64,000 nt of DNA from Pelagibacteraceae bacterium AG-422-N09 (GTDB lineage: Bacteria; Pseudomonadota; Alphaproteobacteria; Pelagibacterales; AG-422-B15): assembly GCA_003213515.1 (NCBI GenBank), contig QCMV01000002.1, positions 57,740 through 121,739 on the forward strand, read 5' to 3'. Of this stretch, positions 1,194 to 44,236 are shown piece after piece. Position numbers and translations under genes: made by a program. Under the pieces are notes generated by a model, which was given only the letters and a program-made list of their open reading frames with translations, did no database searches and was not told the DNA's origin. Within the stretch, counting starts at the first letter, position 1. Each line of letters opens with the position of its first letter.

Positions 1194-2972
1194 ATGAAGA
1201 ATAATATACTTACATTAACTGGTCTAGAGAAAATGGATTCAAAAAAAGATGATGTGTACTTATTAGGGAAATGGTGTTTAGGAGACCGTATCGATGATTT
1301 AGAAACGCATAATAATTATCAAATTCTAAACTATCATTGGGATGATAGGGAAAAATTAAAATTAGATTATTATTATTTAAAAAAGTTACATGATAGGTTG
1401 TTGGATAAACTTACATTATCTCTAAATAAATTGCATTTAGTAGAAAAAGACAAAAGATATTGGCAAATATTACTTGATCCTTGGCTCATGGATTATGTAG
1501 GAATTATATTTGATAGATGGGAAACGATAAGAATTGCAAGTCAATTGGACAGTAAATTTAAAATTAATTATTTAGAAAATTTACCTCATTTTGATGCATC
1601 ATTTTCCTATGTTCATCAAGCAAAGTTAATAAGGACTAGAACTTGGAACCAGGTAATTTATCAAAGAATAATTAATTTTAGTTTTAAGAATAGTTTTGAT
1701 TTTGAAAAAATTACTATAAATAAGGAAGAAAAATTTAAAGAAAATTTTTCAGACAGTGAATATAATAGAAAGGTAATATTAGGTATAATAAAAATATTTA
1801 TAAGGATCTATGAATATTGTTGTTCTAAATTTATACGTAATTATAAAGTTGTGTTTTTAGATGCTTACTTTAGACCGTTTTCATTTATTCTTTTAAATCT
1901 TAAGTTATTTCAACTTCCTAGAATATTCTATTTTGAGTTTTTAAATCCAAAATTAAATAATAAGAAATTACCAAACAGAAAAAAATTAATAATAGATTTA
2001 GACTATTCAAATAAATTTGAGGAATTTCTGAATCATTTTTTACCTACAGATTTACCTACCTCTGTGGTCGAATACTACAAAGATTTTTCTGAACATATAA
2101 AGAAGATTAAAATACAAACAAAGATGATTTTATCTGCGAACGCTTATTGGTATAGTGTCCCTAAAAAATATTGGATTGCAGAACAGTCTTCTAAAGGTGT
2201 AAGTTTTGTTTCAGTTTCACATGGTGGTTCTTTTCCAGCTTACGAGGAACATTTCGATTTTGAAGAAGATATAAGTGACAAAAGATGTACATGGTTCAAA
2301 CCTCTGCATGATAAGCATGTTCAATTACCACCAAATAAATTAATTAATTTAAAGAATTATTACAAACTTCTTAATATAAGAAACTCACGTAAATTACTTT
2401 CAATAATAGGTTTTGAAGGAAGTGGAAAGTGGGCTCATAGATCAACTTTTCGTCCAGTATCGCATCAGGCCTTATTAACCTTTGATTTTAGTGTTAAATT
2501 AGTCAAATTATTAGATAAAGAAATTCAAAACAAAACAAAGATTAGACCACAGAGTAATTTAGGATGGAATACAAAAGAAATGTACGAAAACTATCTAGGA
2601 AAAAAAATGATTTCCCAGGAAAAGAATTATTATAAATTTATTTCTCATTCTAAGATTATTTTATGCTTGTATCCTGAAACGACTTTTTCTGAATCCATGG
2701 CCTCAGGTATTCCAACTATCCTTGCTTATCCAGAAAATTACAATGAGAGAAATCATAAAGCTTTAGGACTAATAGATACAATGAAGAAAGCTAAAATTAT
2801 TTTCAATAATTTTGATTTGGCAGCTGATCATATAAACAATATTTGGCAAAACCCATATGATTGGTGGAATAGTGAAGAAACTTGTAGGGCAAGAGAAGAG
2901 TTCTTTCAAACTGCTGGAAATCCGAATGATAGTCAATGGTTAAGAAAATGGTTGAAGTTTCTTAAGATTTAA
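1194..2972 (+). CDS. Uncharacterised putative transferase, LIC12162-like family as I recall it from TIGRFAM; paralogue of the N-terminal ~600 aa of 5524..8277
   Basis: 592-aa ORF. It shares long identical strings with the downstream paralogue (ILNYHWDDR, ILLDPWLMDYV, FDRWETI, HGGSFP, FEEDISDKR, YPETTF). It lies in a glycan locus next to a WbuX-type amidotransferase. Confidence 0.5.
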   Translation: MKNNILTLTGLEKMDSKKDDVYLLGKWCLGDRIDDLETHNNYQILNYHWDDREKLKLDYYYLKKLHDRLLDKLTLSLNKLHLVEKDKRYWQILLDPWLMDYVGIIFDRWETIRIASQLDSKFKINYLENLPHFDASFSYVHQAKLIRTRTWNQVIYQRIINFSFKNSFDFEKITINKEEKFKENFSDSEYNRKVILGIIKIFIRIYEYCCSKFIRNYKVVFLDAYFRPFSFILLNLKLFQLPRIFYFEFLNPKLNNKKLPNRKKLIIDLDYSNKFEEFLNHFLPTDLPTSVVEYYKDFSEHIKKIKIQTKMILSANAYWYSVPKKYWIAEQSSKGVSFVSVSHGGSFPAYEEHFDFEEDISDKRCTWFKPLHDKHVQLPPNKLINLKNYYKLLNIRNSRKLLSIIGFEGSGKWAHRSTFRPVSHQALLTFDFSVKLVKLLDKEIQNKTKIRPQSNLGWNTKEMYENYLGKKMISQEKNYYKFISHSKIILCLYPETTFSESMASGIPTILAYPENYNERNHKALGLIDTMKKAKIIFNNFDLAADHINNIWQNPYDWWNSEETCRAREEFFQTAGNPNDSQWLRKWLKFLKI

Positions 2973-3010: not shown

Positions 3011-4198
3011 ATGAAAAATATAACTTACTGTACGCGTTGCACTATCCCTAGTACCCAAGAGGGAGTAACTTTTGATGAAATGGGAATTTGTACAGCTTGT
3101 ATTTCTTCTGAAGAAAAAATGCACATAGATTGGAATAAAAGAGAAAAGGATCTTTTAGAAATATTAAAAAATGCAAAATCAAATTCGGGAAATGGCTATG
3201 ATTGTGTATTGCCGATATCTGGTGGAAAAGATAGTTTTTTTCAAGCACATGTTCTTACTCAAGTATATGATGTTAAGCCTTTAGCAGTAACATTTAGCCA
3301 TAATTGGTTTTCGGAAACAGGTTTTTATAATCTACAGAGATGTTTGGAAGTCTTTAACTTAGATCATATACAGTTTACACCCGCAAGAAACTTAGTAAAT
3401 AAGCTTGCAAGAAAATCAATAAATGTAATAGGAGATTCTTGTTGGCATTGTCATGCAGGTGTTGGAGCATTTCCACTTCAAATTGCTACAAAATTTAAGA
3501 TTCCTTTATTAGTTTGGGGAGAATCAATAGCCGAAAATGATGGAAGAGAAGGATATGGTTGTCCCAAAATTAAGTTTGATAGAGATTATTTTACTAAAGT
3601 TTCTGCTAAGCTTACAGCTGAGGAGATGGTTGATGATAATTTATCTTCAAAAGATTTACATCCGTTTAGTCTTCCCTCTTATAAAGAAATAGACGATGCG
3701 GGTGTGCATGGTATTCATCTTGGAGATTATATTTTTTGGGACGATGAGAGGCAGACAGAATGGATAAGAGATACCTATGGTTGGAAAGAAACAGAAATGG
3801 AAGGAACATACAAAGGCTATAAAAGCGCAGAATGTATTATGTCTGGTATGCATGATTTTACTTGTTATTTAAAGAGAGGCTACGGCAGAGCTACTGTTCA
3901 AACAGCCGTAGATGTTAGAAATGGACTTCTTACTAGAAAAGAAGGTTTTGAATTAATTAAAAAGCACGATCAGGAAATTCCTGAAGCTTTAGACTATTAC
4001 CTAGAAATTACAGGCCTTAATGACAATGAGTTTTATAGGATAATGAACTCAAAAAAACTAAAAGAATTGCACGAAGTAAATATCCCTGTAAGAAAGAAAG
4101 AGCAACAAAACCTTGAGAAAATAAAGCCTTTTGTCGAACAAATAATTGAAAAGCATTTAAAAAGAGAAGATCCTAGGGTTTTGCGAGATAAAAAATAA
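3011..4198 (+). CDS. N-acetyl sugar amidotransferase (WbuX/WbpG/PseA-like PP-loop ATP pyrophosphatase)
   Basis: It has an N-terminal Cys cluster (CTRCTIP...GICTAC) and the PP-loop motif PISGGKDS. The length of 395 aa is typical of the family. Confidence 0.8.
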   Translation: MKNITYCTRCTIPSTQEGVTFDEMGICTACISSEEKMHIDWNKREKDLLEILKNAKSNSGNGYDCVLPISGGKDSFFQAHVLTQVYDVKPLAVTFSHNWFSETGFYNLQRCLEVFNLDHIQFTPARNLVNKLARKSINVIGDSCWHCHAGVGAFPLQIATKFKIPLLVWGESIAENDGREGYGCPKIKFDRDYFTKVSAKLTAEEMVDDNLSSKDLHPFSLPSYKEIDDAGVHGIHLGDYIFWDDERQTEWIRDTYGWKETEMEGTYKGYKSAECIMSGMHDFTCYLKRGYGRATVQTAVDVRNGLLTRKEGFELIKKHDQEIPEALDYYLEITGLNDNEFYRIMNSKKLKELHEVNIPVRKKEQQNLEKIKPFVEQIIEKHLKREDPRVLRDKK

Positions 4199-5524
4199 AT
4201 GATGGGTTATTTATTTCTAGAAAACTCAATCAGCGAATTATTAAATAAAATTAAAAATAAAGAATTTGCTCTTTCTGACATGATAAGTCACTCAGAAGAA
4301 GTATATCTTAGACATGAGAATGAAACAAATGCATGGAAAGAATTTGATACAGGCAGATTAAATAAATATCTTGATGATAATAATTTAAGAAATTTATCTG
4401 GAATACCTTTTGGAATAAAAGATATTTTTAATACATCTGATTTTTTTACTCAGATGGGATCAGAAATATGGAAAAACTTTTCTCCAGGAAACAATGCAAG
4501 AGTAGTTGATATGCTTATCGGCGCAGGTGCTTTTCCAATAGGAAAAACAGTAACGGCCGAATTTGCTGTTCACAAGTTAAATGAAACTCTAAATCCGCAT
4601 GATGCCTTGAGGACACCAGGTACATCTTCTAGTGGATCAGCAGCTGCTGTATCAAGAGGAGTTGTTCCATTTGCTCTTGGCACTCAAACTGCTGGATCTA
4701 TAATAAGACCTGCAAGTTTTTGTGGAGTATGGGGTATGAAGCCCTCTTTTGGAATGATTCCTAGAACAGGAATTCTTAAAACTACAGATTCATTAGATAC
4801 TGTTGGATTTTTAACAACGCATGGAAAGAATATGCGACTAATTCTTGATTCTATTAGAGTAAAAGGGCCTAACTATCCATATGTTTATAAAAATGTTGAT
4901 CTAGCTAGCAAAAGAAATAACAAGCATTGGAAAGTAGGTTTCCTAAAAACAAATCTATTTAGTAAGTCTGAACAATATGTTCAAAAAAGTATTGGCAATT
5001 TTATTAACAAACTTTCAACTATTAATACATTTGAGGTAGATGAAGTTTTGTGGCCTAGTTCAATGAATGATTTACATAGTATACATTCAACAATTTACTA
5101 TAAGTCATTAGGATATTATTTTCAAAGAGAAGAAAAACAATCCCAAAAAATTTCTGATTCAATGAAACAAATAATAAATTTATCAAAAGAAATATCCTTA
5201 GACGATTTTCAAAAAGCATTGGATAGACAAGAAAAATTTATTTATTCATTAGATGAATTGATCAAAAAATATGATTTTTTGATAACTAATAGCACAGCGA
5301 GCTCAGCGCCGCTAAGAAACGAGACTGAAATAGACGATACTTCATTGCTTTGGACAATGGGACATGTCCCTTCGATATCTGCTCCGGTATTTAAGTGTCC
5401 AAAGGGGCTTCCCTTTGGAATTCAGTTTATATCAAGAAAATGGAATGACTTTAATTTAATTAATGCCATTGAAGAGCTTATTGACATTGAGATATTACCT
5501 AAGTCTTCTGTTAAGGTACAGTGA
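4199..5524 (+). CDS. Amidase-signature (GatA-like) family amidase
   Basis: Catalytic elements are present: GIPFGIKDIF (Lys), GTSSSGSAAAV (Gly/Ser-rich signature with cis-Ser) and GTQTAGSIIRPASFCG (Ser nucleophile). The ATG directly follows the upstream TAA at 4196-4198. Confidence 0.85.
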   Translation: MMGYLFLENSISELLNKIKNKEFALSDMISHSEEVYLRHENETNAWKEFDTGRLNKYLDDNNLRNLSGIPFGIKDIFNTSDFFTQMGSEIWKNFSPGNNARVVDMLIGAGAFPIGKTVTAEFAVHKLNETLNPHDALRTPGTSSSGSAAAVSRGVVPFALGTQTAGSIIRPASFCGVWGMKPSFGMIPRTGILKTTDSLDTVGFLTTHGKNMRLILDSIRVKGPNYPYVYKNVDLASKRNNKHWKVGFLKTNLFSKSEQYVQKSIGNFINKLSTINTFEVDEVLWPSSMNDLHSIHSTIYYKSLGYYFQREEKQSQKISDSMKQIINLSKEISLDDFQKALDRQEKFIYSLDELIKKYDFLITNSTASSAPLRNETEIDDTSLLWTMGHVPSISAPVFKCPKGLPFGIQFISRKWNDFNLINAIEELIDIEILPKSSVKVQ

Positions 5525-8277
5525 TGACTAAAAGAAATTTATTAATACTTACTTCCATTAAAGAAACTAGAAATCAATCACATGATGATTGTATTTTACT
5601 AGGTGAGTGGTGCAAGGATTTAAATGAGGAAGATAAAAATTTTAATATAGAACATATTCTAAATTATCATTGGGATGATAGAGTCAAATTAAAGAGAGAT
5701 TATAAATATTTAAAAAACTTTCATTATCAATTATTAAGTGAACTAACTACAAAACTAAATTCGTTACATGGTGTCAATTATGATATTAGATATTGGAGAA
5801 TTTTATTAGATCCTTGGTTAATGGATTATGTATCAGTTTTATTTGATAGATGGGAGACTATTGATGCTGCATGTAAATTAGACAAAAAATTTGATGTTAA
5901 TTTCTTACAAAGTAATTTCTTAGATAAGTCTTTACCTTTAGGAATGAATCAGATGCATGCACACTTTAGTAAAGATTATTTCAATCAATTATTATATCAA
6001 AAAATAATTGAATATAATTATAGCGACTCATTCAATATAAAAATAGTAGATACCAAAAGAGATTTACAAAAGGATTTGTATGAGCCGTTTGTAGAAAAAG
6101 AAAGCTCATATTTTTTCAATCTTTTTAGAGGATTGTATAATCATATTGATAAGATGCTCGGAAACATTTTTAACAAATATGATGTAGTTTTTATTGACTC
6201 ATACTTTAGGTATTTTGACCTGATAAAAATAAATCTAGCTATGAATCAGTTTCCAAGATTATTTAATATGGATTTTGATTCAAAATCCAAAGAAATTAAA
6301 AGCCTTTATGAAAATCAAGATAATGAGGCTCGTAATCAAATTAAAATTTCCTTAAATAATAGTTCTAAGTTTGAAAATTTTATACTTGAGCAAATTATTA
6401 AGAATTTGCCAAAATCAATTGTAGAAAATTATTCATCTTTAAAGAATATATCCCAGCAGATAAATATTAATACCAAAGTGATAATGTCTGCAAACAGTCA
6501 TTGGGATAATCTTTTAAAAAAATTCTGGATTGCGCATAAGGTATCTCAAGGAGTAAAATTTGTTACATTAGAACATGGTGGCTCATTCCCTCCACTAAAA
6601 GAACATTTTCAATTTGAGGAAGATATAAGCGATAAAAGAGGAACCTGGTTTATTCCTTGGCATGAAAAGCACATTCAATTACCGCCTACAAAATTAGTTC
6701 ACAGAAATAAATTGATTAATAAAAGAAAAGGTTCTTCTAATCGCTATAAAAGGTGTTCTTTAATTGCTTACGGAGGAAGAAGATGGGCTTTTCGGGTTAA
6801 TTTTTATCCTCATTCATATCAGGGGCTAAAACCTTTGGAAGATAGTGTGGTATTTTACAATAATTTAGACACTAAAATAAAAGATAATTTTCAAATTAAG
6901 TTACACCATGACCTTGGATTAAATGAAATTGATAGATTTAGAAGAAAATTAGATCCTTCAAAAATATCTACCGAAAAAAATTATGATAAATTTTTAAGTA
7001 ATTCAAAAGTAATTGTTTGTACTTATCCTGAGACTACATTTGCTGAAGCAATGTCAACTAATATTCCAACAATTATGTTTTTTGATAAAAATATTTTTGA
7101 GCGAAATCCAATAACAGATAACTTACTTAACAAGCTTGTTGAAGCAAAGATAATTTTCTTCGATGCAAAAACAGCAGCTAAACATTTAAATAAAATATGG
7201 GATAATTTAGATGTCTGGTGGAATAGTGACATTGTATTGAATGCAAGAATTGAATTTAGGAAACAGGCTTCCCCAATAGACAAATATTGGATTAGTAAAT
7301 GGAAGACATTCATAAATGATAATTTTTTAAGAAATTCTCATCATAAAATGCAAGCTTATGGGAATAATTTTACTGGCTATCTAAGAGCGGGAATTTATAC
7401 AACTAGATTATTTGTTCAGAACCCTGTTGAAAGTTTGAATGAAATCATTTCTGATGTCAGAAAAGATCAAAATTCTAAACTTTTTGAGTCAAAATATAAT
7501 CTTGTTTGGTGTGCGGGTTTACCACATTCAGGAACTACTCTAGTAGAAGAAATATTTGATAGTTTGCCATATATTAGATTAAATTCATCTCCACTTAGAT
7601 TTTTTAATTCAGGTAATCTGACTCACCCTCATAGTGTTTCAAGAGAAATGTTTTTAAGCGCACCAATAAACAAATATTCATTTTTTAAAACCCATAGTCA
7701 TTATGATCCAAGTTTTCTAGAATATGCAAAACAGAGCAATGCAAGAATAATAGTTTGTCTTAGAGATATTAGAGATATGATGATTAGCAGATATTGGCAT
7801 ATTATGTCTAATAAATACCACTGGTTACATCTTAAGATCAAAGATCTTCCAATGAGAGAGGGTTTTATTGAGTCTTTGATTTCTGTTAATGAGGAAAATT
7901 ATTATTCCCCTAGACCAATTGAAGATTATTTCTTGTGGATAAAGAATTGGATAGAAGTTGAAAAAAAAGAAGATATTAAAATTATATGGTATGAAGATTA
8001 TGTTAAAAATTCAATTCAGTATATTTATAATATTTTAGATTACTTAGAATTTAGTGAAATTAATGCGAAACATATAGAAGAAAAACTTGAGTCAAAAAGG
8101 GTTAGAAATAAGTCATTTCCATTATCAAAGAGACTTTTTTTGCCAGGAAGAATGAAATCAACATATAGGTCAGGTAAATCCGGGGAGTGGCGTGAATTAT
8201 TTGATGATAATATTTCTGAGGTCTTTAATTCATATATTCCTGGAGAAATTTCAGAAATTATAGATAATAATAGATAA
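5524..8277 (+). CDS. Fusion protein: LIC12162-like putative transferase (N-terminal ~600 aa) plus a C-terminal PAPS-type sulfotransferase domain
   Basis: The N-terminus is collinear with 1194..2972 to that protein's very end (QWLRKWLKFLKI versus YWISKWKTFIND). The extra ~300 aa carry sulfotransferase motifs: GLPHSGTT (5'-PSB), FKTHSH, LRDIRDMMISRY (3'-PB) and RSGKSGEWRELF. The track start GTG 5521 and ATG 5524 are both possible; ATG 5524 overlaps the upstream TGA. Confidence 0.7.
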   Translation: MTKRNLLILTSIKETRNQSHDDCILLGEWCKDLNEEDKNFNIEHILNYHWDDRVKLKRDYKYLKNFHYQLLSELTTKLNSLHGVNYDIRYWRILLDPWLMDYVSVLFDRWETIDAACKLDKKFDVNFLQSNFLDKSLPLGMNQMHAHFSKDYFNQLLYQKIIEYNYSDSFNIKIVDTKRDLQKDLYEPFVEKESSYFFNLFRGLYNHIDKMLGNIFNKYDVVFIDSYFRYFDLIKINLAMNQFPRLFNMDFDSKSKEIKSLYENQDNEARNQIKISLNNSSKFENFILEQIIKNLPKSIVENYSSLKNISQQININTKVIMSANSHWDNLLKKFWIAHKVSQGVKFVTLEHGGSFPPLKEHFQFEEDISDKRGTWFIPWHEKHIQLPPTKLVHRNKLINKRKGSSNRYKRCSLIAYGGRRWAFRVNFYPHSYQGLKPLEDSVVFYNNLDTKIKDNFQIKLHHDLGLNEIDRFRRKLDPSKISTEKNYDKFLSNSKVIVCTYPETTFAEAMSTNIPTIMFFDKNIFERNPITDNLLNKLVEAKIIFFDAKTAAKHLNKIWDNLDVWWNSDIVLNARIEFRKQASPIDKYWISKWKTFINDNFLRNSHHKMQAYGNNFTGYLRAGIYTTRLFVQNPVESLNEIISDVRKDQNSKLFESKYNLVWCAGLPHSGTTLVEEIFDSLPYIRLNSSPLRFFNSGNLTHPHSVSREMFLSAPINKYSFFKTHSHYDPSFLEYAKQSNARIIVCLRDIRDMMISRYWHIMSNKYHWLHLKIKDLPMREGFIESLISVNEENYYSPRPIEDYFLWIKNWIEVEKKEDIKIIWYEDYVKNSIQYIYNILDYLEFSEINAKHIEEKLESKRVRNKSFPLSKRLFLPGRMKSTYRSGKSGEWRELFDDNISEVFNSYIPGEISEIIDNNR

Positions 8278-8395: not shown

Positions 8396-9154
8396 ATGAA
8401 TTTAAGAAAAAAAAATTTTTATTTTAAAAATATTACGATTGGTTCATGGATTACACTTTATAACCCAGGAATTGCAGAAATATTTTCACAAAATAAATTT
8501 GATTGGATAGTTGTAGATTTAGAGCATAGCGCGATTTCAATAGATCAGGCATCTGATTTAATCAGAATAATTGATTTATGTGGATGCAGACCTTTAGTTA
8601 GACTTACCTCTAATAGTAAGGATTTAACAAAGAGAGTTTTAGATGCAGGAGCTCACGGAATTATTGTTCCTATGATAAATTCAAAAGATGAGGCAAAGAA
8701 AGCTGTAAGCTATTCACACTATATGCCGAAAGGCGTAAGAGGTGTTGGACTAGCGAGAGCTCAAGGTTATGGAAGTAAATTTGATGAATATGTTCGATGG
8801 CAAGAAAATGAGCCACTTATTATTGCTCAAATTGAACACGTTAACGCAATAAATAATATTGAAGAAATTGTCTCGGTTAGTGGAATAGATGGCGTTTTTA
8901 TTGGTCCATATGACCTGTCTGGATCTATTGGAAGATCTGGAGATTTTACTTCAACGAAGTATAAAAACTCAATCAAAAAAGTAAAAGCAGTTGTTAAATC
9001 AAAAAATAAAATACTTGGCATTCATGTTGTTGAGCCTGATGTCTTCGAGGTAAATAAAGCAATAAGAGATGGATTCAGCTTTATCTCATTTAGTGTTGAT
9101 ATCAGAATTTTAGACTCTAATATAAAAAATGCTATTCAAAAAATAAGAAAATAA
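8396..9154 (+). CDS. HpcH/HpaI-family class II (pyruvate) aldolase
   Basis: Family pattern: GSWITLYNPGIAEI, DWIVVDLEHS, RPLVRL, LDAGAHGIIVPMINSKDEA, YMPKGVRGVG. Confidence 0.8.
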   Translation: MNLRKKNFYFKNITIGSWITLYNPGIAEIFSQNKFDWIVVDLEHSAISIDQASDLIRIIDLCGCRPLVRLTSNSKDLTKRVLDAGAHGIIVPMINSKDEAKKAVSYSHYMPKGVRGVGLARAQGYGSKFDEYVRWQENEPLIIAQIEHVNAINNIEEIVSVSGIDGVFIGPYDLSGSIGRSGDFTSTKYKNSIKKVKAVVKSKNKILGIHVVEPDVFEVNKAIRDGFSFISFSVDIRILDSNIKNAIQKIRK

Positions 9155-9169
9155 CAGTAAAAAAATTAA

Positions 9170-9946
9170 ATGAATACCATTGGCATCATTCCAGTAAGAA
9201 TGGACTCGACAAGATTTTATGGGAAACCTATGGCTAATATATGTGGGATTCCTATGGTAGGTCATTGTTTTTATCGATCTTGCTTAGCGTTAGGAAGTAA
9301 TAAAGTTTTTGTCGCTACATGTGACAAAATAATTGCAGATTATATTAGTAGTATCGGCGGACAAGTAGTTCTTACATCAAAAAAACATAAAAGGGCGACA
9401 ACGAGGACTGCTGAAGCAAAAAGGAAAATCGAGAAGAAATATAAAGATAAGATAGAAGCAATAGTTATGATTCAAGGAGATGAACCAACTATAAATAATA
9501 AATCTATTTCTGAGGTTGCAAAAGAATTAAAAAAATCAAAAAAAAATATTATCAATCTAGTTTCAATCATTAATTCTAAGAAAAATTTAAGAGATCAAAA
9601 TAATGTAAAAGTGATTCTTAATAAGAATAGACAAGCTATCTATTATTCTCGGTATCCTATACCTTTTTTGATAGATAAATCAAAAAAAACAGATTTTTAC
9701 ATGCAAACAGGTATCATTGGATTCAAGTCAAGTAAGCTTGATAAGTTTAATAACCTAGATGAAACAATATTAGAAAAGTTGGAATCAGTCGATATGAATA
9801 GATTAATAGAAAACAATGAATCTATAGATACAATATGTACCAACTATCCAACTATTAGTGTAGATACAAGAAAAGAACTCAAGGCTGCTGAAAAATTAAT
9901 AATAAAGGATCGTTTGATTAATAAATATAAAAAATTAATAAGATAA
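9170..9946 (+). CDS. KdsB/NeuA-type cytidylyltransferase (CMP-ulosonic acid synthetase family)
   Basis: The N-terminus IGIIPVRMDSTRFYGKPMANICGIPMVGH and the QGDEP motif are as in 3-deoxy-manno-octulosonate cytidylyltransferases. Confidence 0.75.
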   Translation: MNTIGIIPVRMDSTRFYGKPMANICGIPMVGHCFYRSCLALGSNKVFVATCDKIIADYISSIGGQVVLTSKKHKRATTRTAEAKRKIEKKYKDKIEAIVMIQGDEPTINNKSISEVAKELKKSKKNIINLVSIINSKKNLRDQNNVKVILNKNRQAIYYSRYPIPFLIDKSKKTDFYMQTGIIGFKSSKLDKFNNLDETILEKLESVDMNRLIENNESIDTICTNYPTISVDTRKELKAAEKLIIKDRLINKYKKLIR

Positions 9947-10920
9947 TGATGAATAAGATAAAAAAAATATTGCTAAATTTAATTGATAGTTCACGTAAAA
10001 AAAAAATTAATAAAAGCATACAAAATATACTTTCATCTCAAAAAATTGGATTTATTGATATTGGAGCAGCTGGCAACATACATCCAAGATGGGAGAAGAT
10101 AAGTAAACATATTAATTATTATGGGTTTGAACCAGATCTTAGATCGTATAATCTTTTAGTTAATAAAAAGAACGAATGTCATGAATATAAGATATTTAAT
10201 ACGGCAATATGGGAAAGTGACTCAGAGATTCAAATAAATTTATGCAAGAAGCCATGGGTCTCATCTTTTTATACTCCAAACTATAATTTTTTAGATAATT
10301 TTCCTGAAAATGATAGATACACTGTCATTGAAAAAGAAAATATGAAAACGTCTTCATTGGACAATGTTAATTTCAGTGAAAAAGACTTTATAAAAATTGA
10401 TATTCAAGGTGGGGAACTAAAAGTTCTTAAAGGAGCTTCTAAAACACTCCATCATTGCCTAGGACTTGAAATTGAAGTTGAGTTTCTTGAACTATATGAA
10501 TCCCAGCCACTATTTGGTGAATTATGTTTATTTCTAAAGAATGAAGGATTTGAATTTATAGATTTTATCTCTTTGAATAGGTGGGAGAGAGATAAATATG
10601 ACGGATATGGACAAAGCACTTTTGGCGATGCACTTTTTATGAGAACACCTGAACACATGCAAAAGTTTTTTTCAAAAGATTCAAATAAAATAAAAAAATA
10701 TATAGCTACATGTGTTTTATATAATCGCTATGATTATATTGAGACAATTACTAATTCAAAAATTTTCTCTGCAAACTTTTCATTTGAAGAAATTAAAAAG
10801 ATAAAAAAATCAGCAGACAAAATGAAAACAAACCATATTAAAGTAAGATCAGTTAATAAATTTTTTAATAAAATTTTAAGAATTATGGATGACAATAACA
10901 GTTTGCATCTTTTTTACTAA
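9946..10920 (+). CDS. FkbM-family methyltransferase
   Basis: Motifs IDIGAAGN, YGFEPD and IKIDIQGGELKVLKGA. The TAATG start overlaps the upstream stop. Confidence 0.75.
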   Translation: MMNKIKKILLNLIDSSRKKKINKSIQNILSSQKIGFIDIGAAGNIHPRWEKISKHINYYGFEPDLRSYNLLVNKKNECHEYKIFNTAIWESDSEIQINLCKKPWVSSFYTPNYNFLDNFPENDRYTVIEKENMKTSSLDNVNFSEKDFIKIDIQGGELKVLKGASKTLHHCLGLEIEVEFLELYESQPLFGELCLFLKNEGFEFIDFISLNRWERDKYDGYGQSTFGDALFMRTPEHMQKFFSKDSNKIKKYIATCVLYNRYDYIETITNSKIFSANFSFEEIKKIKKSADKMKTNHIKVRSVNKFFNKILRIMDDNNSLHLFY

Positions 10921-11984
10921 TGGGAAAAAAAATTAAAATTGCAATAGCCGGTTATGGAGTAGTTGGAAAACTAAGACATAAATCAATTAATAAAAATAAA
11001 GATTTTGATTTAATCGCAGTATGTGACAGAAAATTCAAAAAAAATGGAGTCTTTAGCAATGGTATTCAATATTATAGATATTATAAGGAACTGCTCGAAT
11101 TAGACATTGATGCTATAATAATTTGTTTAACTAATGATGTTGCTGCTCAAGCTACCCTTGATTCACTAAAAAAAAATAAGCATGTTTTTTGTGAGAAGCC
11201 TCCAGGCGTTCGATTAAGAGATATATTTACCATATATAAATATTTAAAGAAAAATAAAAAACTAAAGCTAATGTATGGATTTAATCATCGTTATCACCAG
11301 TCAATTCAAGATGCTATTGATATAGTTAACTCTGAAAAGTATGGAAAGATAATTAACATGAGAGCAGTTTATGGTAAGTCAAATATAATTACTTTCAATC
11401 AATCCGATTGGAGAACAAAAAGGAAAATAGCTGGAGGTGGTATTCTATTAGATCAAGGTATTCATATTCTTGACTTATTAAGATTATTTGCTGGAGATTT
11501 TAATCAAATAAAAAGTTTTGTTTCTAATAATTATTGGAAATTCGATGTAGAAGATAATGTATACGCAGTAATGAAAACAAGATCAGGAATTCATGCTTCA
11601 ATAAACTCCTCAGCTACTCAATGGCCACATAAGTTTTCTCTTGAAATCAATCTTGAAAAGGGATCGGTGGTTTTATCAGGAATTTTATCTAATTCAAAAA
11701 GTTATGGTAAAGAAACAATAAAGTTATTAAAAAAGAAAAAAAATGATAATAAATTTAAGCAAAATATAAAAATAAAAAAATACACAAAAGATATATCATG
11801 GGACAAAGAACTAGAATCCTTTTCAGACATTATTAAAAACAAGAAATCATCAAAAAAAGGTAGCATTAGTGAAGCATTTCTTACTATGAAATTAGTTTTC
11901 TTAATATATTACAGCGACAAAGAATGGAGGAAAAAATACAATATTGAGAATCCTAATAAATTTACTATCGATGAAGAAAAATAA
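10920..11984 (+). CDS. Gfo/Idh/MocA-family NAD(P)-dependent oxidoreductase
   Basis: The N-terminal Rossmann segment KIAIAGYGVVGKLR and the CEKPPG (EKP) motif are typical of the family. Confidence 0.8.
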   Translation: MGKKIKIAIAGYGVVGKLRHKSINKNKDFDLIAVCDRKFKKNGVFSNGIQYYRYYKELLELDIDAIIICLTNDVAAQATLDSLKKNKHVFCEKPPGVRLRDIFTIYKYLKKNKKLKLMYGFNHRYHQSIQDAIDIVNSEKYGKIINMRAVYGKSNIITFNQSDWRTKRKIAGGGILLDQGIHILDLLRLFAGDFNQIKSFVSNNYWKFDVEDNVYAVMKTRSGIHASINSSATQWPHKFSLEINLEKGSVVLSGILSNSKSYGKETIKLLKKKKNDNKFKQNIKIKKYTKDISWDKELESFSDIIKNKKSSKKGSISEAFLTMKLVFLIYYSDKEWRKKYNIENPNKFTIDEEK

Positions 11985-12705
11985 TTTACTTGAAATTGCA
12001 AAAAAAGCATCTTTAGCTGCTTTAGAATCTTTGGAATTAAACAAAGATAAAGAACTTAAATCTAGTTATGATGTAGATTTAATAAGGGAGATGAAAAGTG
12101 AAATAGATATTATTAATAATAATAAAATACTTAATGTATTAAAAAAAACAGGTATACCAATTTTGTCTGAAGAAAATATAAAAGAAATAGACCATAGTGA
12201 ATATTGTTGGATTGTAGATCCATTAGACGGCACAGTAAATTATATAAGAAATATAGCTAGTTGTGGCATATCAATAGCCCTCTTTAAAAATAGTAAACCT
12301 ATTTTCGGCGTAATTGCTGAGTATCCAGATAAAAATCTATATTGGGGAGGTAAAGAATTTGGAGCTTTCAGAAATGGAGTTCCAATCAAAGTTTCAAAAA
12401 TATCGAACAAAAAGGAGGCTATTCTGTGCACAGGATTTCCCGCAAGATATGATTTTGATGAATTAGATGATACACAATTATTTAGAGAATATGCAAAAAT
12501 AAGAATGCTTGGATCGGCTTCAATTAGTTTGGTAAATCTTGCCAAGGGAAGTGTAGATTGTTACTTAGAAAAAAACATAATGATATGGGATATAGCGGCG
12601 GGAATAGCGTTACTTGAGGGTGCCGGTGGAGAATATAAAATTCAGAATTTAAAATTCCTATCTCCATTAAATCTTATTGCACATAATGGGATTTTAAATA
12701 TATGA
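11971..12705 (+). CDS. Inositol-monophosphatase-family phosphatase (island copy)
   Basis: Motifs WIVDPLDGTVNY and MIWDIAAG. The track ORF starts at TTG 11944. ATG 11971 (MKKNNLLEIAKKAS) is the more conservative start and overlaps the upstream gene by 14 nt. Confidence 0.8.
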   Translation: MKKNNLLEIAKKASLAALESLELNKDKELKSSYDVDLIREMKSEIDIINNNKILNVLKKTGIPILSEENIKEIDHSEYCWIVDPLDGTVNYIRNIASCGISIALFKNSKPIFGVIAEYPDKNLYWGGKEFGAFRNGVPIKVSKISNKKEAILCTGFPARYDFDELDDTQLFREYAKIRMLGSASISLVNLAKGSVDCYLEKNIMIWDIAAGIALLEGAGGEYKIQNLKFLSPLNLIAHNGILNI

Positions 12706-13628
12706 AAAATAATAAAAAAGATTTTATTGCTGTATGTTCCCGGTCCTTTTCAGCAAATCCATTATTAAGAAAAAAAATTTTATCCAAATATAAAAATGTA
12801 AAGTTTAATGACAGGGGTATTAAACTAGAGGGAAGTAGTCTTCATAGCTTTGTTAAAGGAGCTTCTAAAATAATTGTAGGACTAGAAAAAATTGATAAAC
12901 AATTGTTGGCTTCACTCCCAGAATTAAAACTTATTTCAAAATATGGAGTTGGAATTGATAATATAGATACCCATGCAATGAAAAAATATAATAAGAAGCT
13001 TGTTAACTATGAGGGTGTAAATAAAAGATCAATTTCAGAACTTATTTTATTGTTAATATTGAATAGTATGAGGAAAATCAAATTGATTAATAGTGATATA
13101 ACTCTCGGAAAGTGGAAACAAAGAGTTGGATCGGAATTAAGTGGTAAGACTGTCGGAATTATTGGATTTGGAAATATTGGCCAAGATTTAAGTGTTATTT
13201 TAAGGCCTTTTGAATGTAAAATTATTTTTTATGATATTAGTATTAATCATGTAAAAAAAAATATTTTAAGAAAAGTAAAAAGAGTTAGTCTAAACAAACT
13301 TCTTACATCAGCAGATATCATAACATTAAACTTGCCATACAATAGGTATACGAAGAATATTATTGATAAAAATAATATCAAATTGATGAAGTCAAATTCG
13401 ATTTTAATCAATACTGCAAGAGGAGGACTGGTTGATGAGAAAGCATTATTCAGAGCTTTAAAACAAAAAAAAATTGCGGCAGCAGCTTTTGATGTATTTG
13501 AGAAAGAGCCTCCTCAAAATTCTAATCTGTTGAAATTAGATAACTTTTTTGCTACTTCTCATATCGGAAGTATTACCAATGAAGCAATTATTAGGATGGG
13601 AATGGCTGCTATAAAAGGCTTACAGTAA
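12702..13628 (+). CDS. D-isomer-specific 2-hydroxyacid dehydrogenase (phosphoglycerate dehydrogenase-like)
   Basis: Motifs GKTVGIIGFGNIGQ (NAD binding), NTARGGLVDEKAL, FDVFEKEP and SHIG. There is an ATGA overlap with the upstream gene. Confidence 0.85.
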   Translation: MKNNKKDFIAVCSRSFSANPLLRKKILSKYKNVKFNDRGIKLEGSSLHSFVKGASKIIVGLEKIDKQLLASLPELKLISKYGVGIDNIDTHAMKKYNKKLVNYEGVNKRSISELILLLILNSMRKIKLINSDITLGKWKQRVGSELSGKTVGIIGFGNIGQDLSVILRPFECKIIFYDISINHVKKNILRKVKRVSLNKLLTSADIITLNLPYNRYTKNIIDKNNIKLMKSNSILINTARGGLVDEKALFRALKQKKIAAAAFDVFEKEPPQNSNLLKLDNFFATSHIGSITNEAIIRMGMAAIKGLQ

Positions 13629-13644
13629 CCTTAAGAATATCAAA

Positions 13645-15462
13645 ATGTTGAATGAAATAGAGCTAATTTGGAAACTGCCTCATAAAAAAACAGAAAAACT
13701 GTCAATTACTAAATATGTCGAAACTAACGGAATTGAAATAAGGAGAAGTTATTCAAATTTCATTCATAACCTCTCACATCAGAAAATAGGTAAAAAAAAA
13801 ATATATAATTTTTTTTTATTCAATAATCATTTTAATCTATGGTGGATGTCGCTTTTATATGAGAAAAACTTTTATAAATCAAAAAATATAAGTGAGTGCA
13901 TTAAAATTATAGGATTAGAGAAGATTATAAAAGAATTTAAGCCTCACACAATAAGACTTATATGTTCATCAAACAAAACTAGGAAGTGTATAATTGAATT
14001 ATGTAAACAGTTAGATGTTAATTTAAAAATTGATATCAAGAATAAATCTAAAAGATTTTCTAATTATAAATTTTTAAAAATTATAAAAAAAAATATTCCT
14101 TATTATTTACAAGGTTTTCTATTTCTCCTTTCTTATTATTTAAATGCTTTGAGTTTGAAAAAACTTAAAAAGCCATCTTGGATTAAATCATCAAGTAGTA
14201 TATTTTTATTTTCATATTTTACTCATTTAAAATTTAACAAAACAAACAAAAGCATTATAGAGTCAAGTCAATGGGAAGATGTTATTGGACTAATAAGAAA
14301 AAGAAGAAAGGATATTAACTGGTTACACTTTGATGGGATGACTAAAGATAATTATAAGAAAAAAAACTTCCTATCTTTATCGCCAAATAGTAAGCAATTT
14401 AGTGATTTTAACGAACAGCATTTTTTTTTAGAGGGCTATCTTAATATACAATTACTAATAAAAATTTTTTTTATTTATTCTTTTTTACATTTAAAATATT
14501 TAATATTTAGGCCTAAAAAAAATATTTTTTCAGTTAAAGATTCAAATATTAATTTATATCCCTTGTTAATTGATGATTGGCATGAATCATTTTCGGGAAT
14601 TATTTTAATGCAAAATATTATTTGGATAATATTGTTCGACTTAGCAATGAAGGACATTCCAAAAAGCAAATTTGGTCTTTTTCCTCAGGAAAATCAATCA
14701 TGGGAACGTGCATTCATCTCTTCGTGGAGAAAACATCAAACAGGAAAATTAATAGGTTATGCTCACTCCGATATTAGATTCTGGGATACCAAGTATTTCG
14801 AAAACGTGGAAATTTTTGAAAATGATAGTTTACGCTTTCCTTATTCAGATGCTTTAGCAATAAATTCTGAGAGAGCTTATGAAAACCTTATTAGTTCTAA
14901 ATTTCCGCAATCTAAAATTTTAAAGGTTGAGGCTGTAAGATATCTTCGAGTGTTAGAAAATGATAATAAAAGAAGTCTAAATGTTAATTCATTCAAAAAG
15001 ATATTAATTGTTGGTGATTACCAATTTCGATATAACTATAAGTTACTTGAAGATATATATTCATTAAATTTAAACCCAAAGAATTATAATCTTACATTTA
15101 AGTCTCATCCTGGTTTTCCAATTGATGTATCAAAATATAAATTATTTGGTTTAAAAGAAACAAATGAACCGCTTGAAGATATACTTCAGGATTATGATAT
15201 TATTGTAGCGGTAGACGCAACAGCATCTTCCATAGAGGCAGTTTTAATGAATAAATTTACTATAGTTTATTATGATAGTGCATATTTAAATTACAGTCCT
15301 TTAAGAAATAGTAACAGTGTTTCTTTTGCTAGCAATAAGTATGAGCTTGGTGAATATATAAAAAATTATGACTCAAAAGTCAAAATAGATAATCATAATT
15401 TACTCTATTTTAATAAAGACTTAAAACTCTGGAAAAATGTTATTGATAAATATGTTTACTAA
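13645..15462 (+). CDS. Large uncharacterised protein in the glycan operon, possibly an orphan transferase
   Basis: 605-aa uninterrupted ORF in very AT-rich DNA, co-directional with and 16 nt after the upstream gene. It has hydrophobic segments mid-protein. The C-terminal third (ILIVGDY..., KSHPGFP, DIIVAVDATASSIEAV) has a Rossmann-like alternation. I recognise no diagnostic motif. Confidence 0.5.
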   Translation: MLNEIELIWKLPHKKTEKLSITKYVETNGIEIRRSYSNFIHNLSHQKIGKKKIYNFFLFNNHFNLWWMSLLYEKNFYKSKNISECIKIIGLEKIIKEFKPHTIRLICSSNKTRKCIIELCKQLDVNLKIDIKNKSKRFSNYKFLKIIKKNIPYYLQGFLFLLSYYLNALSLKKLKKPSWIKSSSSIFLFSYFTHLKFNKTNKSIIESSQWEDVIGLIRKRRKDINWLHFDGMTKDNYKKKNFLSLSPNSKQFSDFNEQHFFLEGYLNIQLLIKIFFIYSFLHLKYLIFRPKKNIFSVKDSNINLYPLLIDDWHESFSGIILMQNIIWIILFDLAMKDIPKSKFGLFPQENQSWERAFISSWRKHQTGKLIGYAHSDIRFWDTKYFENVEIFENDSLRFPYSDALAINSERAYENLISSKFPQSKILKVEAVRYLRVLENDNKRSLNVNSFKKILIVGDYQFRYNYKLLEDIYSLNLNPKNYNLTFKSHPGFPIDVSKYKLFGLKETNEPLEDILQDYDIIVAVDATASSIEAVLMNKFTIVYYDSAYLNYSPLRNSNSVSFASNKYELGEYIKNYDSKVKIDNHNLLYFNKDLKLWKNVIDKYVY

Positions 15463-28978: not shown

Positions 28979-29476
28979 ATGTGGTTAGTCAAAAAATCAA
29001 AAGTGCATGGCTCTGGAGTATTTGCTACTAAAAATATACCTAAGGGAAAAAAAATTATTGAATATATCGGAGAAAAAATCGCTAAATCAGAGGGAGATAG
29101 GAGATCTGAATTAAGAATAAAAAAATATTTAAACTCAGATAAAACAGGTTCTGTATATATTTTTGAGTTAAATAAAAAATATGATATTGATGGATCACCT
29201 CTTTATAATAAAGCAAGATATATAAATCACTCATGTGAACCAAACTGTGAGGTAGATATTATAGATAATCAAATTTGGATTTCATCTATAAAAAAAATAA
29301 AGAGCGGTGAAGAGCTAACTTATGATTATGGTTATACTTTTGATCGAGATGATTATAAAGATCACCCATGTCGTTGTGCATCAAAAAACTGTATAGGTTA
29401 CATTATATCTTCTGATGATTGGGGTAAATTTTTGAAACATTTAAAAAAAAATATAAATAAGCTCAAAAAATTATAG
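28979..29476 (+). CDS. SET-domain protein (putative protein lysine methyltransferase)
   Basis: It has the SET core motifs ARYINHSCEPNC and GEELTYDYG, plus the post-SET Cys cluster HPCRCASKNCIGY. Confidence 0.8.
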   Translation: MWLVKKSKVHGSGVFATKNIPKGKKIIEYIGEKIAKSEGDRRSELRIKKYLNSDKTGSVYIFELNKKYDIDGSPLYNKARYINHSCEPNCEVDIIDNQIWISSIKKIKSGEELTYDYGYTFDRDDYKDHPCRCASKNCIGYIISSDDWGKFLKHLKKNINKLKKL

Positions 29477-32257: not shown

Positions 32258-33076
32258 TTAACCCATCTTCGATTTATTCTTGGATGGGTTCTTTTTATTC
32301 AAAATTGATCTGCATTTATTAAAAATCTCATTATTTGCGCAAGCAATTATTCTTCCACCTTTAGATATATTTTTATTATCCCAAGTTTTTAATATTCCTC
32401 CCGCGTTCATAATTATTGGTTCTAAAGCTCTTATATCCCATGCGTTTAGTCCACTTTCCACGACTATATCTACAAGTCCGTCTGCGAGCAAACAATAACT
32501 GTAGCAATCTCCACCAAGTCGAGTTAATTTGACCTTTTTACTTAGTCTCTCAAATGATGATTGATCATTTTTATTTGCAAATAAATATGGCGAAGTTGTA
32601 TTTAATATTGAATCGGAAATTACTTTATTGTTACTAACCTTCAAATTGGATTTTTTTCCATTTATAATCTTATATGATTTTTTTTCATATCCAATGTATC
32701 TCTCATCTAACGCAGGAATATCTGCAACACCCAAAATAATATTACCATTTTCTGATAGCGAAATTAATGTACCCCAAAGCGGCATACCTTGTATAAACGA
32801 CTTTGTTCCATCAATTGGATCAATACACCATTCATAAGCACTATTTTTAGGATGAGTTTCTTCCTCTCCGATAATTGAGTGATTTGGAAAATATTTTAGA
32901 ATTAAATGATTTAATTTTTTTTGAATTTTGATGTCTGCTACTGTTACCGGATCAAAACCAGATCTTTCTTTATTTTTAGCTTTAATTTTTGTTTTAAAAT
33001 ATTTAAGGGAAATTAGACGAGCTTCGTCTGCCAACATATTTGAGAAATTTAAAAATTTTTTTATACTTTTTTTCAT
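32258..33076 (-). CDS. Inositol-monophosphatase-family protein, possibly histidinol-phosphatase HisN
   Basis: Motifs CIDPIDGTKSF and AWDIRALEPII. The start is trimmed to ATG 33076 (MKKSIKKF). The longer track ORF runs into the divergent neighbour. Confidence 0.7.
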   Translation of the reverse strand: MKKSIKKFLNFSNMLADEARLISLKYFKTKIKAKNKERSGFDPVTVADIKIQKKLNHLILKYFPNHSIIGEEETHPKNSAYEWCIDPIDGTKSFIQGMPLWGTLISLSENGNIILGVADIPALDERYIGYEKKSYKIINGKKSNLKVSNNKVISDSILNTTSPYLFANKNDQSSFERLSKKVKLTRLGGDCYSYCLLADGLVDIVVESGLNAWDIRALEPIIMNAGGILKTWDNKNISKGGRIIACANNEIFNKCRSILNKKNPSKNKSKMG

Positions 33077-33131
33077 ACTATATATAAAATTATGTATTGA
33101 ATGGCTAGATAACCTTTTGTACCATAGAAGT

Positions 33132-34451: not shown

Positions 34452-34526
34452 GGGCACGTAGCTCAGTGGTAGAGCATCACGTTGACATCGTGGGGGTTGT
34501 TGGTTCGATCCCAACCGTGCCCACCA
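34452..34526 (+). tRNA. tRNA-Val (anticodon GAC)
   Basis: Manual cloverleaf: acceptor GGGCACG/CGTGCCC, D arm GCTC-AGTGGTA-GAGC, anticodon arm TCACG-TTGACAT-CGTGG, T arm GTTGG-TTCGATC-CCAAC, encoded CCA. Confidence 0.9.
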
Positions 34527-43933: not shown

Positions 43934-44236
43934 ATGAATATAATTTCAATAATGATGAGACGGCTTAATATTCATAGTTTCTCTCAATTTATCGTAATCA
44001 TGATTATTTTTGCTATTACAGGGTCATTGTCGCTTTATATCACTGTCGAATTATTTCAATTTATTGGTCTTCAGGAAGAGAATTTAAATCCAATAATTTT
44101 TTGGCCGCTTAGAATAATATTACTTTTTGTAATCTATCAAATATTACTGCTACTTGTTGCACTGCCATTTGGACAATTTCAATATTTTTGGTCATTTGAA
44201 AAAAAATTTTTAAGTAGATTTGGACTTAAATTATAA
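43934..44236 (+). CDS. Small hypothetical membrane protein
   Basis: It is about 100 aa with two to three hydrophobic helices (FIVIMIIFAITGSLSLYI, RIILLFVIYQILLLLVAL). ATG 43934 is preferred over the track's TTG 43922. The 3' end overlaps suhB by 6 nt. Confidence 0.4.
   Translation: MNIISIMMRRLNIHSFSQFIVIMIIFAITGSLSLYITVELFQFIGLQEENLNPIIFWPLRIILLFVIYQILLLLVALPFGQFQYFWSFEKKFLSRFGLKL

Follow-up and report, generated by a model that had tools for sequence, protein, structure and literature searches.

Within a 64,000-nucleotide stretch of NCBI contig QCMV01000002.1 (positions 57,740 to 121,739 of the forward strand; the whole of this analysed stretch is called the window below), we identified a gene whose single open reading frame (ORF) encodes a LIC12162-like transferase followed by a sulfotransferase of the type that uses 3'-phosphoadenosine-5'-phosphosulfate (PAPS). 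An earlier note on this DNA had proposed this combination, and it is upheld by matches to profile hidden Markov models (HMMs), by fold models and by conservation. The ORF listing of the window gives the frame as 5521 (GTG) to 8277 on the + strand; on an identical Logan contig gene callers chose the ATG at 5524 as the start, which yields a protein of 917 residues (aa). In the sequence GTGATG this ATG shares one base with the TGA stop of the amidase gene that lies upstream, a pattern typical for the co-translated genes of an operon. The features of the fusion gene are:

5524..8277, + strand: fusion gene, 917 aa (start from gene callers; in-frame GTG at 5521)
5524..7311, + strand: LIC12162/TIGR04331 (PF27859) domain, aa 1-596, predicted GT-B-like fold (HMM and model)
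6574-6591, + strand: HGGSFP, conserved motif of the N-terminal domain (family alignment)
7024-7053, + strand: YPETTFAEAM, conserved motif of the N-terminal domain (family alignment)
7312..7368, + strand: connector, aa 597-615, from the end of LIC12162 homology to the start of the alignment with free-standing sulfotransferases
7369..7482, + strand: pair of helices that opens the sulfotransferase module, aa 616-653 (model and alignment)
7504..8238, + strand: Sulfotransfer_1 (PF00685) core, aa 661-905 (HMM and model)
7516..7539, + strand: 5'-phosphosulfate-binding (5'-PSB) loop GLPHSGTT, aa 665-672, with the His668 codon CAT at 7525-7527
7687-7701, + strand: KTHSH, aa 722-726
7687..7695, + strand: K722-T-H724, the conserved Lys and catalytic-base His of SULT-type enzymes
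7762-7794, + strand: RDIRDMMISRY, aa 747-757
7762..7788, + strand: conserved 3'-phosphate-binding motif RDIRDMMIS (Arg747, Ser755)
8167-8202, + strand: motif RSGKSGEWRELF, aa 882-893
8167..8190, + strand: RSGKSGEW (Arg882, Gly884), counterpart of the SULT RKGxxGxW motif

The N-terminal module (N-domain) belongs to the LIC12162 family, as evidenced by its match to TIGR04331 (LIC12162 family transferase, NCBIfam), which spans aa 7-596 and model positions 1-584 of 585 with 331.9 bits (cut-off 225; E 8e-99), and PF27859 is precomputed for a protein identical to the fusion. The first ~600 aa had been described as collinear with a free-standing paralogue in the window (1194..2972), and this holds: the two are 41% identical and the paralogue ends at about fusion residue 600. 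Unfused LIC12162/TIGR04331 (PF27859) transferases in general show full-length collinear homology with the N-domain at 25-42% identity, carry the same HGG and YPETTFxEAM motifs and have WbuX, amidase and cytidylyltransferase genes as neighbors, but they stop at ~600 aa. The residues kept family-wide include H351-G352 and Y501/T504/T505/E508 of YPETTFxEAM. One unfused gene, 30% identical, lies in Pelagibacter sp. HIMB1420; it was the single locus obtained from a scan of species-representative genomes with two peptide patterns. The LIC12162 family is named in the literature beside neuABC-type genes in Herbaspirillum, and our literature search found no mention of TIGR04331, TIGR04326 or PF27859.

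The AlphaFold2 model of the N-domain (predicted local distance difference test score, pLDDT, 92.6; predicted template modeling score, pTM, 0.93) shows two Rossmann-like halves, with a long helical insertion in the N-terminal half. Foldseek matched it in the PDB to the GT-B glycosyltransferases SPY, MGD1, glycogen synthase, MurG and WaaG (probability 1.00, E 2e-6 to 1e-3). The two Rossmann-like domains and inter-domain cleft of GT-B enzymes are recognizable at the level of the fold only: PDB sequences searched with a profile of the N-domain gave no match, no glycosyltransferase-family HMM matched it, and the helical insertion, low sequence identity and low template modeling (TM) scores set it apart from MurG, WaaG, MGD1, glycogen synthase and SPY/OGT. 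In the model, YPETTFxEAM forms part of a strand and helix in the C-terminal Rossmann half, the place at which GT-B enzymes bind the nucleotide.

The C-terminal module (C-domain) matched Pfam PF00685 Sulfotransfer_1 over aa 661-905 and model positions 4-247 of 255 (80.7 bits, cut-off 22; E 1.5e-22) and narrowly passed PF13469 Sulfotransfer_3 (27.8 bits, cut-off 27), so that the HMM check suggested for this region in the earlier note was positive. The four motifs quoted there are all present (aa 665-672, 722-726, 747-757 and 882-893), and the placing of the second domain from about nt 7340 was close, as free-standing homologs align from residue ~616 (nt ~7369). The closest solved relative by sequence (phmmer) is the Arabidopsis SULT 1q44 (E 2e-5), with which the PSB, KTH, RxxxDxxxS and RxGxxGxW motifs of the C-domain align. 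Its model (pLDDT 96.0) has the sulfotransferase fold with a central beta-sheet, and the top 50 PDB matches found by Foldseek were SULT-family structures, nearly all with bound 3'-phosphoadenosine-5'-phosphate (PAP) or PAPS (E from 5e-8, TM ~0.5). The loop GLPHSGTT follows the first beta-strand and precedes a helix, which is the strand-loop-helix setting of a PxSGTT loop. K722-T-H724 aligns to the NTH motif of 1q44 and is invariant in 56/56 relatives, and R747 and S755 of the 3'-phosphate-binding RxxxDxxxS are also invariant in relatives. With the cytosolic SULTs (Arabidopsis 1q44, human SULT1A1 and mouse SULT7A1) the C-domain shares PF00685, the fold, the catalytic His, the 3'-phosphate Arg/Ser and the RKG-type motifs, but identity is 15-21% at TM ~0.5, the PSB Lys is a His in the fusion and there are two extra N-terminal helices; moreover, these SULTs act on small phenols and steroids, whereas the fusion gene is located in a glycan island. 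The fusion protein has no transmembrane segment (maximum 19-residue Kyte-Doolittle mean 0.92).

By sequence comparison, the C-domain derives from an abundant free-standing family of ~300-aa marine sulfotransferases. These Sulfotransfer_1 proteins (e.g., P0179-P0243 and P0305 onward) are 40-47% identical to it across the whole C-module, two N-terminal helices included, share KTH(S/T)H, RDLRDMMISRY and RxGxxGxW, and are located among surface-glycan genes in low-G+C marine metagenome islands; they differ in being separate genes and in having the loop GLPKSG in place of GLPHSG. Residues 617-653 of the fusion are linker-like in appearance, but they form two helices that the free-standing relatives have too, and the segment aa 616-653 is therefore not a novel linker. 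This leaves only ~20 residues between a complete LIC12162 protein and a complete sulfotransferase, as would be expected if two adjacent genes had lost the stop codon and the spacer that once separated them. The structures of the two modules were predicted as separate domains, and a mixed alignment of fused, N-only and sulfotransferase-only proteins was kept out of the modeling, as it placed ~145 C-terminal residues of N-only proteins on the sulfotransferase domain.

Free-standing versions of both halves make two adjacent genes plausible in principle, and the long ORF could on that ground be suspected of being an assembly or sequencing artefact in which a frameshift or lost stop merged them. 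We found no evidence to support this, and consider that it has next to no chance of being correct, because the same uninterrupted ORF recurs in data obtained independently (NCBI contig, Logan run SRR7040879, marine metagenomes of TARA/ENA/JGI) and in diverged lineages, which disposes of the frameshift that the earlier note had raised. The ORF is identical in the independent Logan assembly of SRR7040879; in a TARA contig (L010) 29 of 2754 nt differ and the frame is intact. Proteins of three further 90%-identity clusters (P0002, P0003 and P0004; 908-915 aa) are fused and 46-48% identical to the window protein at 99-100% coverage, ten additional full-length variants that were retrieved are all fused, and a metagenome scan added five more fused loci (L014-L017 and L025), so that the search for the same domain fusion which the note had suggested was successful. 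The length of the junction is conserved among the fusions, and the sulfotransferase part (49-55% identical across lineages) is at least as conserved as the whole protein (47-48%).

The fusion is also rare. When 1.84 billion representative proteins were searched exhaustively by HMMER with a sulfotransferase-domain profile, 797 relatives were obtained at E <=0.001, and among the best 150 of these the fusion cluster alone is long, the rest being free-standing proteins of ~300 aa or fragments, together with three of 430-479 aa. Rarity was judged by this exhaustive search, since a word-indexed search with the same profile missed its own fusion proteins and absence from it cannot be read as true absence. 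Scans of viral contigs with both alignments gave no relatives. We regard the fusion architecture as new, as no description of it was found in the literature and none of the other sampled relatives of the sulfotransferase domain has it.

The C-domain departs from its relatives at one residue of the 5'-PSB loop. The loop reads GLPHSG(T/S)T in all four fusion clusters, every retrieved variant and the five fused metagenome loci, whereas it reads GLPKSG in 56/56 free-standing relatives of one alignment, in 153/153 free-standing relatives with a detectable loop and in 7/7 free-standing metagenome loci. The sample from the metagenome scan is biased, as one of its two patterns contained the His; the counts of 56/56 and 153/153 are unbiased. 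The CAT codon of His668 lies two substitutions from either Lys codon. PHSGTT had been put forward as a hallmark, which was mistaken, as the canonical loop is PKSGTT and its Lys is the catalytic residue; the wider claim that the domain has all the sulfotransferase hallmarks stands for KTH, RxxxDxxxS and RxGxxGxW and fails for the catalytic Lys (or Arg) of the 5'-PSB loop, where all fused copies have His, so that activity of the domain should not be assumed. A review of polysaccharide sulfotransferases (PMC11625862) contains no mention that we could find of a His at the PSB Lys/Arg site, and the fixed Lys-to-His change is new. The fused copies apparently descend from one ancestor, so that phylogenetically the association of the His with the fusion counts as a single event.

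Other active-site residues have been retained. Lys722, the catalytic-base His724, Arg747, Ser755, Arg882 and Gly884 are the same in lineages with only ~50% identity. Between the window and L010, the ratio of non-synonymous to synonymous substitution rates (dN/dS) is 0.134 for the N-domain (13 synonymous and 8 non-synonymous differences) and 0.138 for the sulfotransferase domain (5 synonymous and 3 non-synonymous differences). With these small counts, dN/dS gives no sign of relaxed selection. The retained motifs together with the lack of such a sign lead us to favor an active enzyme in which His replaces Lys.

A second fusion of this kind probably exists. P0098 (895 aa; marine ENA/TARA) has a LIC12162 domain at aa 1-568 (31% identity) and a C-terminal extension which has no Pfam match. 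Aligned to the sulfotransferase profile, the extension covers 222 columns (hhalign probability 84.5%, E 6.9e-6), and its FPSSG, VHTH and IRDPFSTLYS fall on the PSB, catalytic-His and 3'-phosphate motifs, with Ser at the position of the Lys. P0098 is thus probably an independent fusion of a LIC12162 protein with a very divergent sulfotransferase-like domain, and it may be a second case in which the Lys was lost alongside fusion.

A SAR11-like host had been an unverified premise of the earlier note, and the window supports it: its YbgF falls in a 90%-identity cluster with 'Candidatus Pelagibacterales bacterium' GIR05678.1 (a metagenome-assembled genome), other housekeeping proteins of the window fall in clusters with hundreds of marine-metagenome members, and G+C is 25-35%. 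Surface-glycan genes run from before window position 1 to ~29 kb, and they include two FkbM methyltransferases, a WbuX amidotransferase, an amidase, a TIGR04326 protein, GT2 and GT1 glycosyltransferases, epimerases, a UDP-GlcNAc 2-epimerase, an initiating Bac_transf sugar transferase, a PglF-like dehydratase and a weak Wzz-like match. The neighbors of the fusion gene thus form the type of O-antigen or surface-carbohydrate cluster in which LIC12162 genes are placed, and we count the island as the surface-glycan island of a Pelagibacterales genome and as a candidate for hypervariable region 2 (HVR2). HVR2 lies between the 16S-23S and 5S rRNA genes, with tRNA genes as bounds (PMC2217521; 10.64898/2026.04.03.716430). 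In the 64-kb window there are no rRNA genes and only one tRNA gene (tRNA-Val, 34452-34526), and the island extends past the left window edge; what precedes the window start is known solely from L010, in which a further cytidylyltransferase gene is seen upstream. Sulfotransferases have already been reported as typical content of the hypervariable surface-glycan region of SAR11 (PMC2217521; 10.64898/2026.04.03.716430). The genes that surround the fusion, together with the TIGR04326 gene further downstream, are:

1194..2972, + strand: free-standing LIC12162/TIGR04331 paralogue, 592 aa (full-length TIGR04331, E 7.7e-93)
3011..4198, + strand: WbuX-type N-acetyl sugar amidotransferase (TIGR03573), in the conserved run WbuX - amidase - LIC12162
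4199..5524, + strand: amidase-signature protein (PF01425), stop overlapping the fusion start
8396..9154, + strand: HpcH/HpaI-type pyruvate aldolase, with which the conserved block downstream of the fusion begins
9170..9946, + strand: KdsB-like cytidylyltransferase (CMP-ulosonic acid synthetase type)
9946..10920, + strand: FkbM-family methyltransferase
10920..11984, + strand: Gfo/Idh/MocA oxidoreductase
11944..12705, + strand: inositol-monophosphatase-family phosphatase, a candidate for acting on a sugar phosphate or on PAP; score under the CysQ cut-off
12702..13628, + strand: D-2-hydroxyacid dehydrogenase
13645..15462, + strand: TIGR04326 'surface carbohydrate biosynthesis protein', 605 aa

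Gene order is conserved in the fusion loci L002, L009 and L010, where FkbM, the LIC12162 paralogue, the WbuX-type amidotransferase, amidase, fusion, HpcH aldolase and cytidylyltransferase are followed by FkbM, Gfo/Idh/MocA oxidoreductase, inositol monophosphatase (IMPase)-family phosphatase, 2-hydroxyacid dehydrogenase, TIGR04326, epimerase and GT2. An additional methyltransferase gene precedes WbuX in L002 and L009, and in L009 the fusion is followed by a Glucosamine_iso gene. A counterpart of the paralogue 1194..2972 is present in the fusion islands whose upstream region is covered (the window, L002, L009 and L010). The block 8396-13628 looks, from the Pfam and NCBIfam names on which this assignment is based, like a route to a CMP-activated sugar of the 3-deoxy-ulosonic type that employs a pyruvate aldolase instead of one dependent on phosphoenolpyruvate. 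In P0006 and P0010, the closest unfused homologs of the N-domain, the gene occupies the same place after an amidase gene, and the next gene encodes an FkbM methyltransferase where the fusion has its sulfotransferase, which supports a modular logic of adding a residue and then decorating it.

As annotation, the two-domain architecture is solid. From it, and with somewhat better than even confidence, we infer the following function: a soluble cytoplasmic enzyme of two modules, encoded in a Pelagibacterales surface-polysaccharide island, that would carry out a transfer and then a sulfation. The N-module (aa 1-596) would transfer an activated sugar, probably a CMP- or nucleoside diphosphate-activated one made by the neighboring genes, to a lipid-linked repeat unit. 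The C-module (aa 616-917), which is predicted to bind PAPS in the manner of SULTs, would then O-sulfate the same intermediate, either at the newly added residue or at its acceptor. PAPS is cytoplasmic and the fusion protein is soluble, which would place the sulfation on a nucleotide-sugar or a lipid-linked repeat unit before export; in our proposal it would occur at the cytoplasmic face of the membrane. The fusion would have arisen once, by the head-to-tail joining of a whole LIC12162 gene with a whole free-standing marine sulfotransferase gene, and would since have been held by purifying selection, with His668 taking over the role of the Lys, possibly with altered kinetics. As the gene is located in a surface-glycan island, the product that one would naturally expect is a surface glycan with sulfate.

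The supply of PAPS had been presented as a puzzle in the earlier note, on the ground that cultured Pelagibacter were reported to lack the assimilatory genes. The absence of cysDNCHIJ from SAR11 is indeed stated in the text of Smith et al. 2016 (PMC5069961), but the puzzle was overstated, as Table 3 of that paper lists, for cultured SAR11, cysC in 5/7 strains (one orthologue), cysQ in 7/7 and aprA in 5/7; Grote et al. 2012 mention aprBA 'and/or APS kinase' in SAR11 (PMC3448164). These published gene tables make a route from sulfite to adenosine 5'-phosphosulfate (APS) and on to PAPS genomically plausible in SAR11, and in our proposal AprBA would form APS from sulfite and CysC would convert it to PAPS. 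In the metagenome loci L003 and L004, a gene with a Pfam APS_kinase match comes directly after that of a free-standing sulfotransferase which shares 46% identity with the C-module. This gene is one of a set of short P-loop kinases (133-143 aa; L003:8922-9347, L004:1300-1725 and L012:8001-8402) that are very abundant in marine metagenomes, where, in low-G+C glycan islands, they are usually paired with a gene for a GmhA-like SIS_2 isomerase, whether or not a sulfotransferase is nearby. The short kinase may be a divergent APS kinase or a kinase of a sugar pathway.

Several observations weigh against an active enzyme of this kind. The catalytic Lys (or Arg) of the 5'-PSB loop is replaced by His668 in all fused copies; as this Lys (Arg in Stf0) is catalytic and stabilizes the transition state, and Lys/Arg is among the features that define the family (PMC11625862), the C-domain lacks one of the defining features. 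The dN/dS value of the sulfotransferase domain rests on its 5 synonymous and 3 non-synonymous differences. The likeness of the N-domain to GT-B enzymes is distant (~10% identity; TM 0.25-0.34 by query length and <=0.56 by target length), and our literature search gave no characterized member of the LIC12162 family. The 64-kb window, the flanks that can be reached from it and the sequence <=10 kb from the fusion in L002, L009 and L010 gave no gene for an APS kinase, sat or cysDN, and tblastn with the APS-kinase-like protein of L003 gave no match in the window or the fusion loci. That protein itself does not serve as proof of PAPS supply, since only its first ~80 residues match CysC models, with 27-32 bits against cut-offs of 127-244.

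The loss of the Lys could mean that the sulfotransferase module has been disabled or repurposed, so that it binds PAPS/PAP or an acceptor and regulates or positions the LIC12162 transferase, or carries out other chemistry or uses another donor. The contrast between His in all fused copies and Lys in the 153/153 and 7/7 free-standing relatives, the two nucleotide substitutions that the CAT codon requires, the Ser in FPSSG of the probable second fusion P0098 and the family-defining standing of Lys/Arg at this site (PMC11625862) all speak for this reading, as does the occurrence of a PAPS-using non-sulfotransferase, retinol dehydratase, among the structural matches from the same Pfam family. We nevertheless think this unlikely, because Lys722, His724, Arg747, Ser755, Arg882 and Gly884 are kept at ~50% identity, the dN/dS of the sulfotransferase domain is as low as that of the N-domain, and a His is able to bear a positive charge and donate a hydrogen bond and may serve as the Lys does. 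It is also conceivable that both modules are active on different substrates, with the sulfotransferase acting on a nucleotide-activated sugar or small molecule, or with the N-domain being another GT-B-like group transferase, e.g., a TagF-like phosphotransferase. This would agree with the closest C-domain structures being small-molecule cytosolic SULTs and not heparan- or carbohydrate-type sulfotransferases, with a GT-B match that is at fold level only and an N-domain that no glycosyltransferase-family HMM recognizes, and with the presence of free-standing sulfotransferase relatives among genes for sugar precursors (aminotransferases and radical SAM enzymes). The covalent fusion and the probable second, independent one argue instead for a shared substrate, the island has a set for lipid-linked assembly (initiating sugar transferase, GT1, GT2 and the weak Wzz-like match), and unfused relatives have a methyltransferase gene at the same position; on balance we consider separate substrates quite improbable.

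The proposal of an enzyme that transfers and then sulfates can be taken further, although we offer the extension as a speculation that we think unlikely. SAR11, unable to assimilate sulfate, would spend PAPS on cell-surface sulfation, its otherwise orphan cysC, cysQ and aprBA would be there to feed surface-glycan sulfotransferases by way of sulfite, APS and PAPS, and the fusion would be a dedicated add-then-sulfate machine with a His loop that is an undescribed catalytic variant which arose with the fusion. That P0098 also has no PSB Lys is a hint that the partner domain alters the needs of the active site.

The best-known precedent for the proposed logic is NDST1, in which one polypeptide has a glycan-processing module and a PAPS sulfotransferase that act on the same polymer. 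NDST1 is a eukaryotic protein of the Golgi, it has a deacetylase and not a transferase as the partner module, and its sulfotransferase is of the heparan N-sulfotransferase type with the PSB Lys; the likeness to the fusion is in working logic only, and the origins are unrelated. NodH, Stf0 and the Mesorhizobium KpsS (PMC11625862) are bacterial examples of PAPS-dependent sulfation of envelope glycoconjugates, but they are single-domain proteins. The fusion provides a first functional handle on the uncharacterized LIC12162/TIGR04331 family, members of which are encoded in clusters of surface-glycan genes in Leptospira, Herbaspirillum, Pelagibacter and numerous organisms not in culture, as one and probably two independent sulfotransferase fusions tie the family to a step whose product gets decorated. 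It also suggests that surface glycans are sulfated in the marine bacterium of greatest abundance, whose glycan islands are thought to set phage susceptibility, and the fixed Lys-to-His change at a defining residue of PAPS sulfotransferases poses a clean question for enzymology. Current views are not overturned by these findings, as sulfotransferases of SAR11 glycan islands were already reported, both domain families were known and the functions are predicted.

Further genes of the window relate to these subjects. A WbuX-type amidotransferase gene and the amidase gene lie directly 5' of the fusion in every fusion island (the window, L002, L009 and L010), and an amidase gene is also 5' of P0006 and P0010; the amidase may supply ammonia for the synthesis of an acetamidino sugar. 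The TIGR04326 protein (13645-15462) resembles, weakly and at the level of profiles (hhalign probability 26%, E 7e-4), the LIC12162 family in its C-terminal Rossmann half, and the two orphan families may, by their profiles, be distantly related GT-B-like transferases. All four fusion-bearing islands with a covered downstream region have the in-island IMPase-family gene, and the unfused P0010 island lacks it. An assignment of its product as CysQ was rejected, the score of 86 bits being under the cut-off of 228.8 and below the protein's own scores for other subfamilies; we retain it as a lead, as it could be a PAP phosphatase. There are three IMPase-family genes in the 64 kb (11944-12705, 32258-33211 on the - strand and 44231-45019 on the - strand), none of which reaches the CysQ threshold; of those outside the glycan island, one is HisN-like and just under the HisN cut-off, and one is SuhB-like and adjoins efp. 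At the right edge of the glycan island, 28979-29476 encodes a small SET-domain protein (165 aa). A TTG-start ORF of 493 aa at 32928-34409 (+ strand) has no family match and overlaps the HisN-like gene at 32258-33211 (- strand), and at least a part of it is probably spurious.

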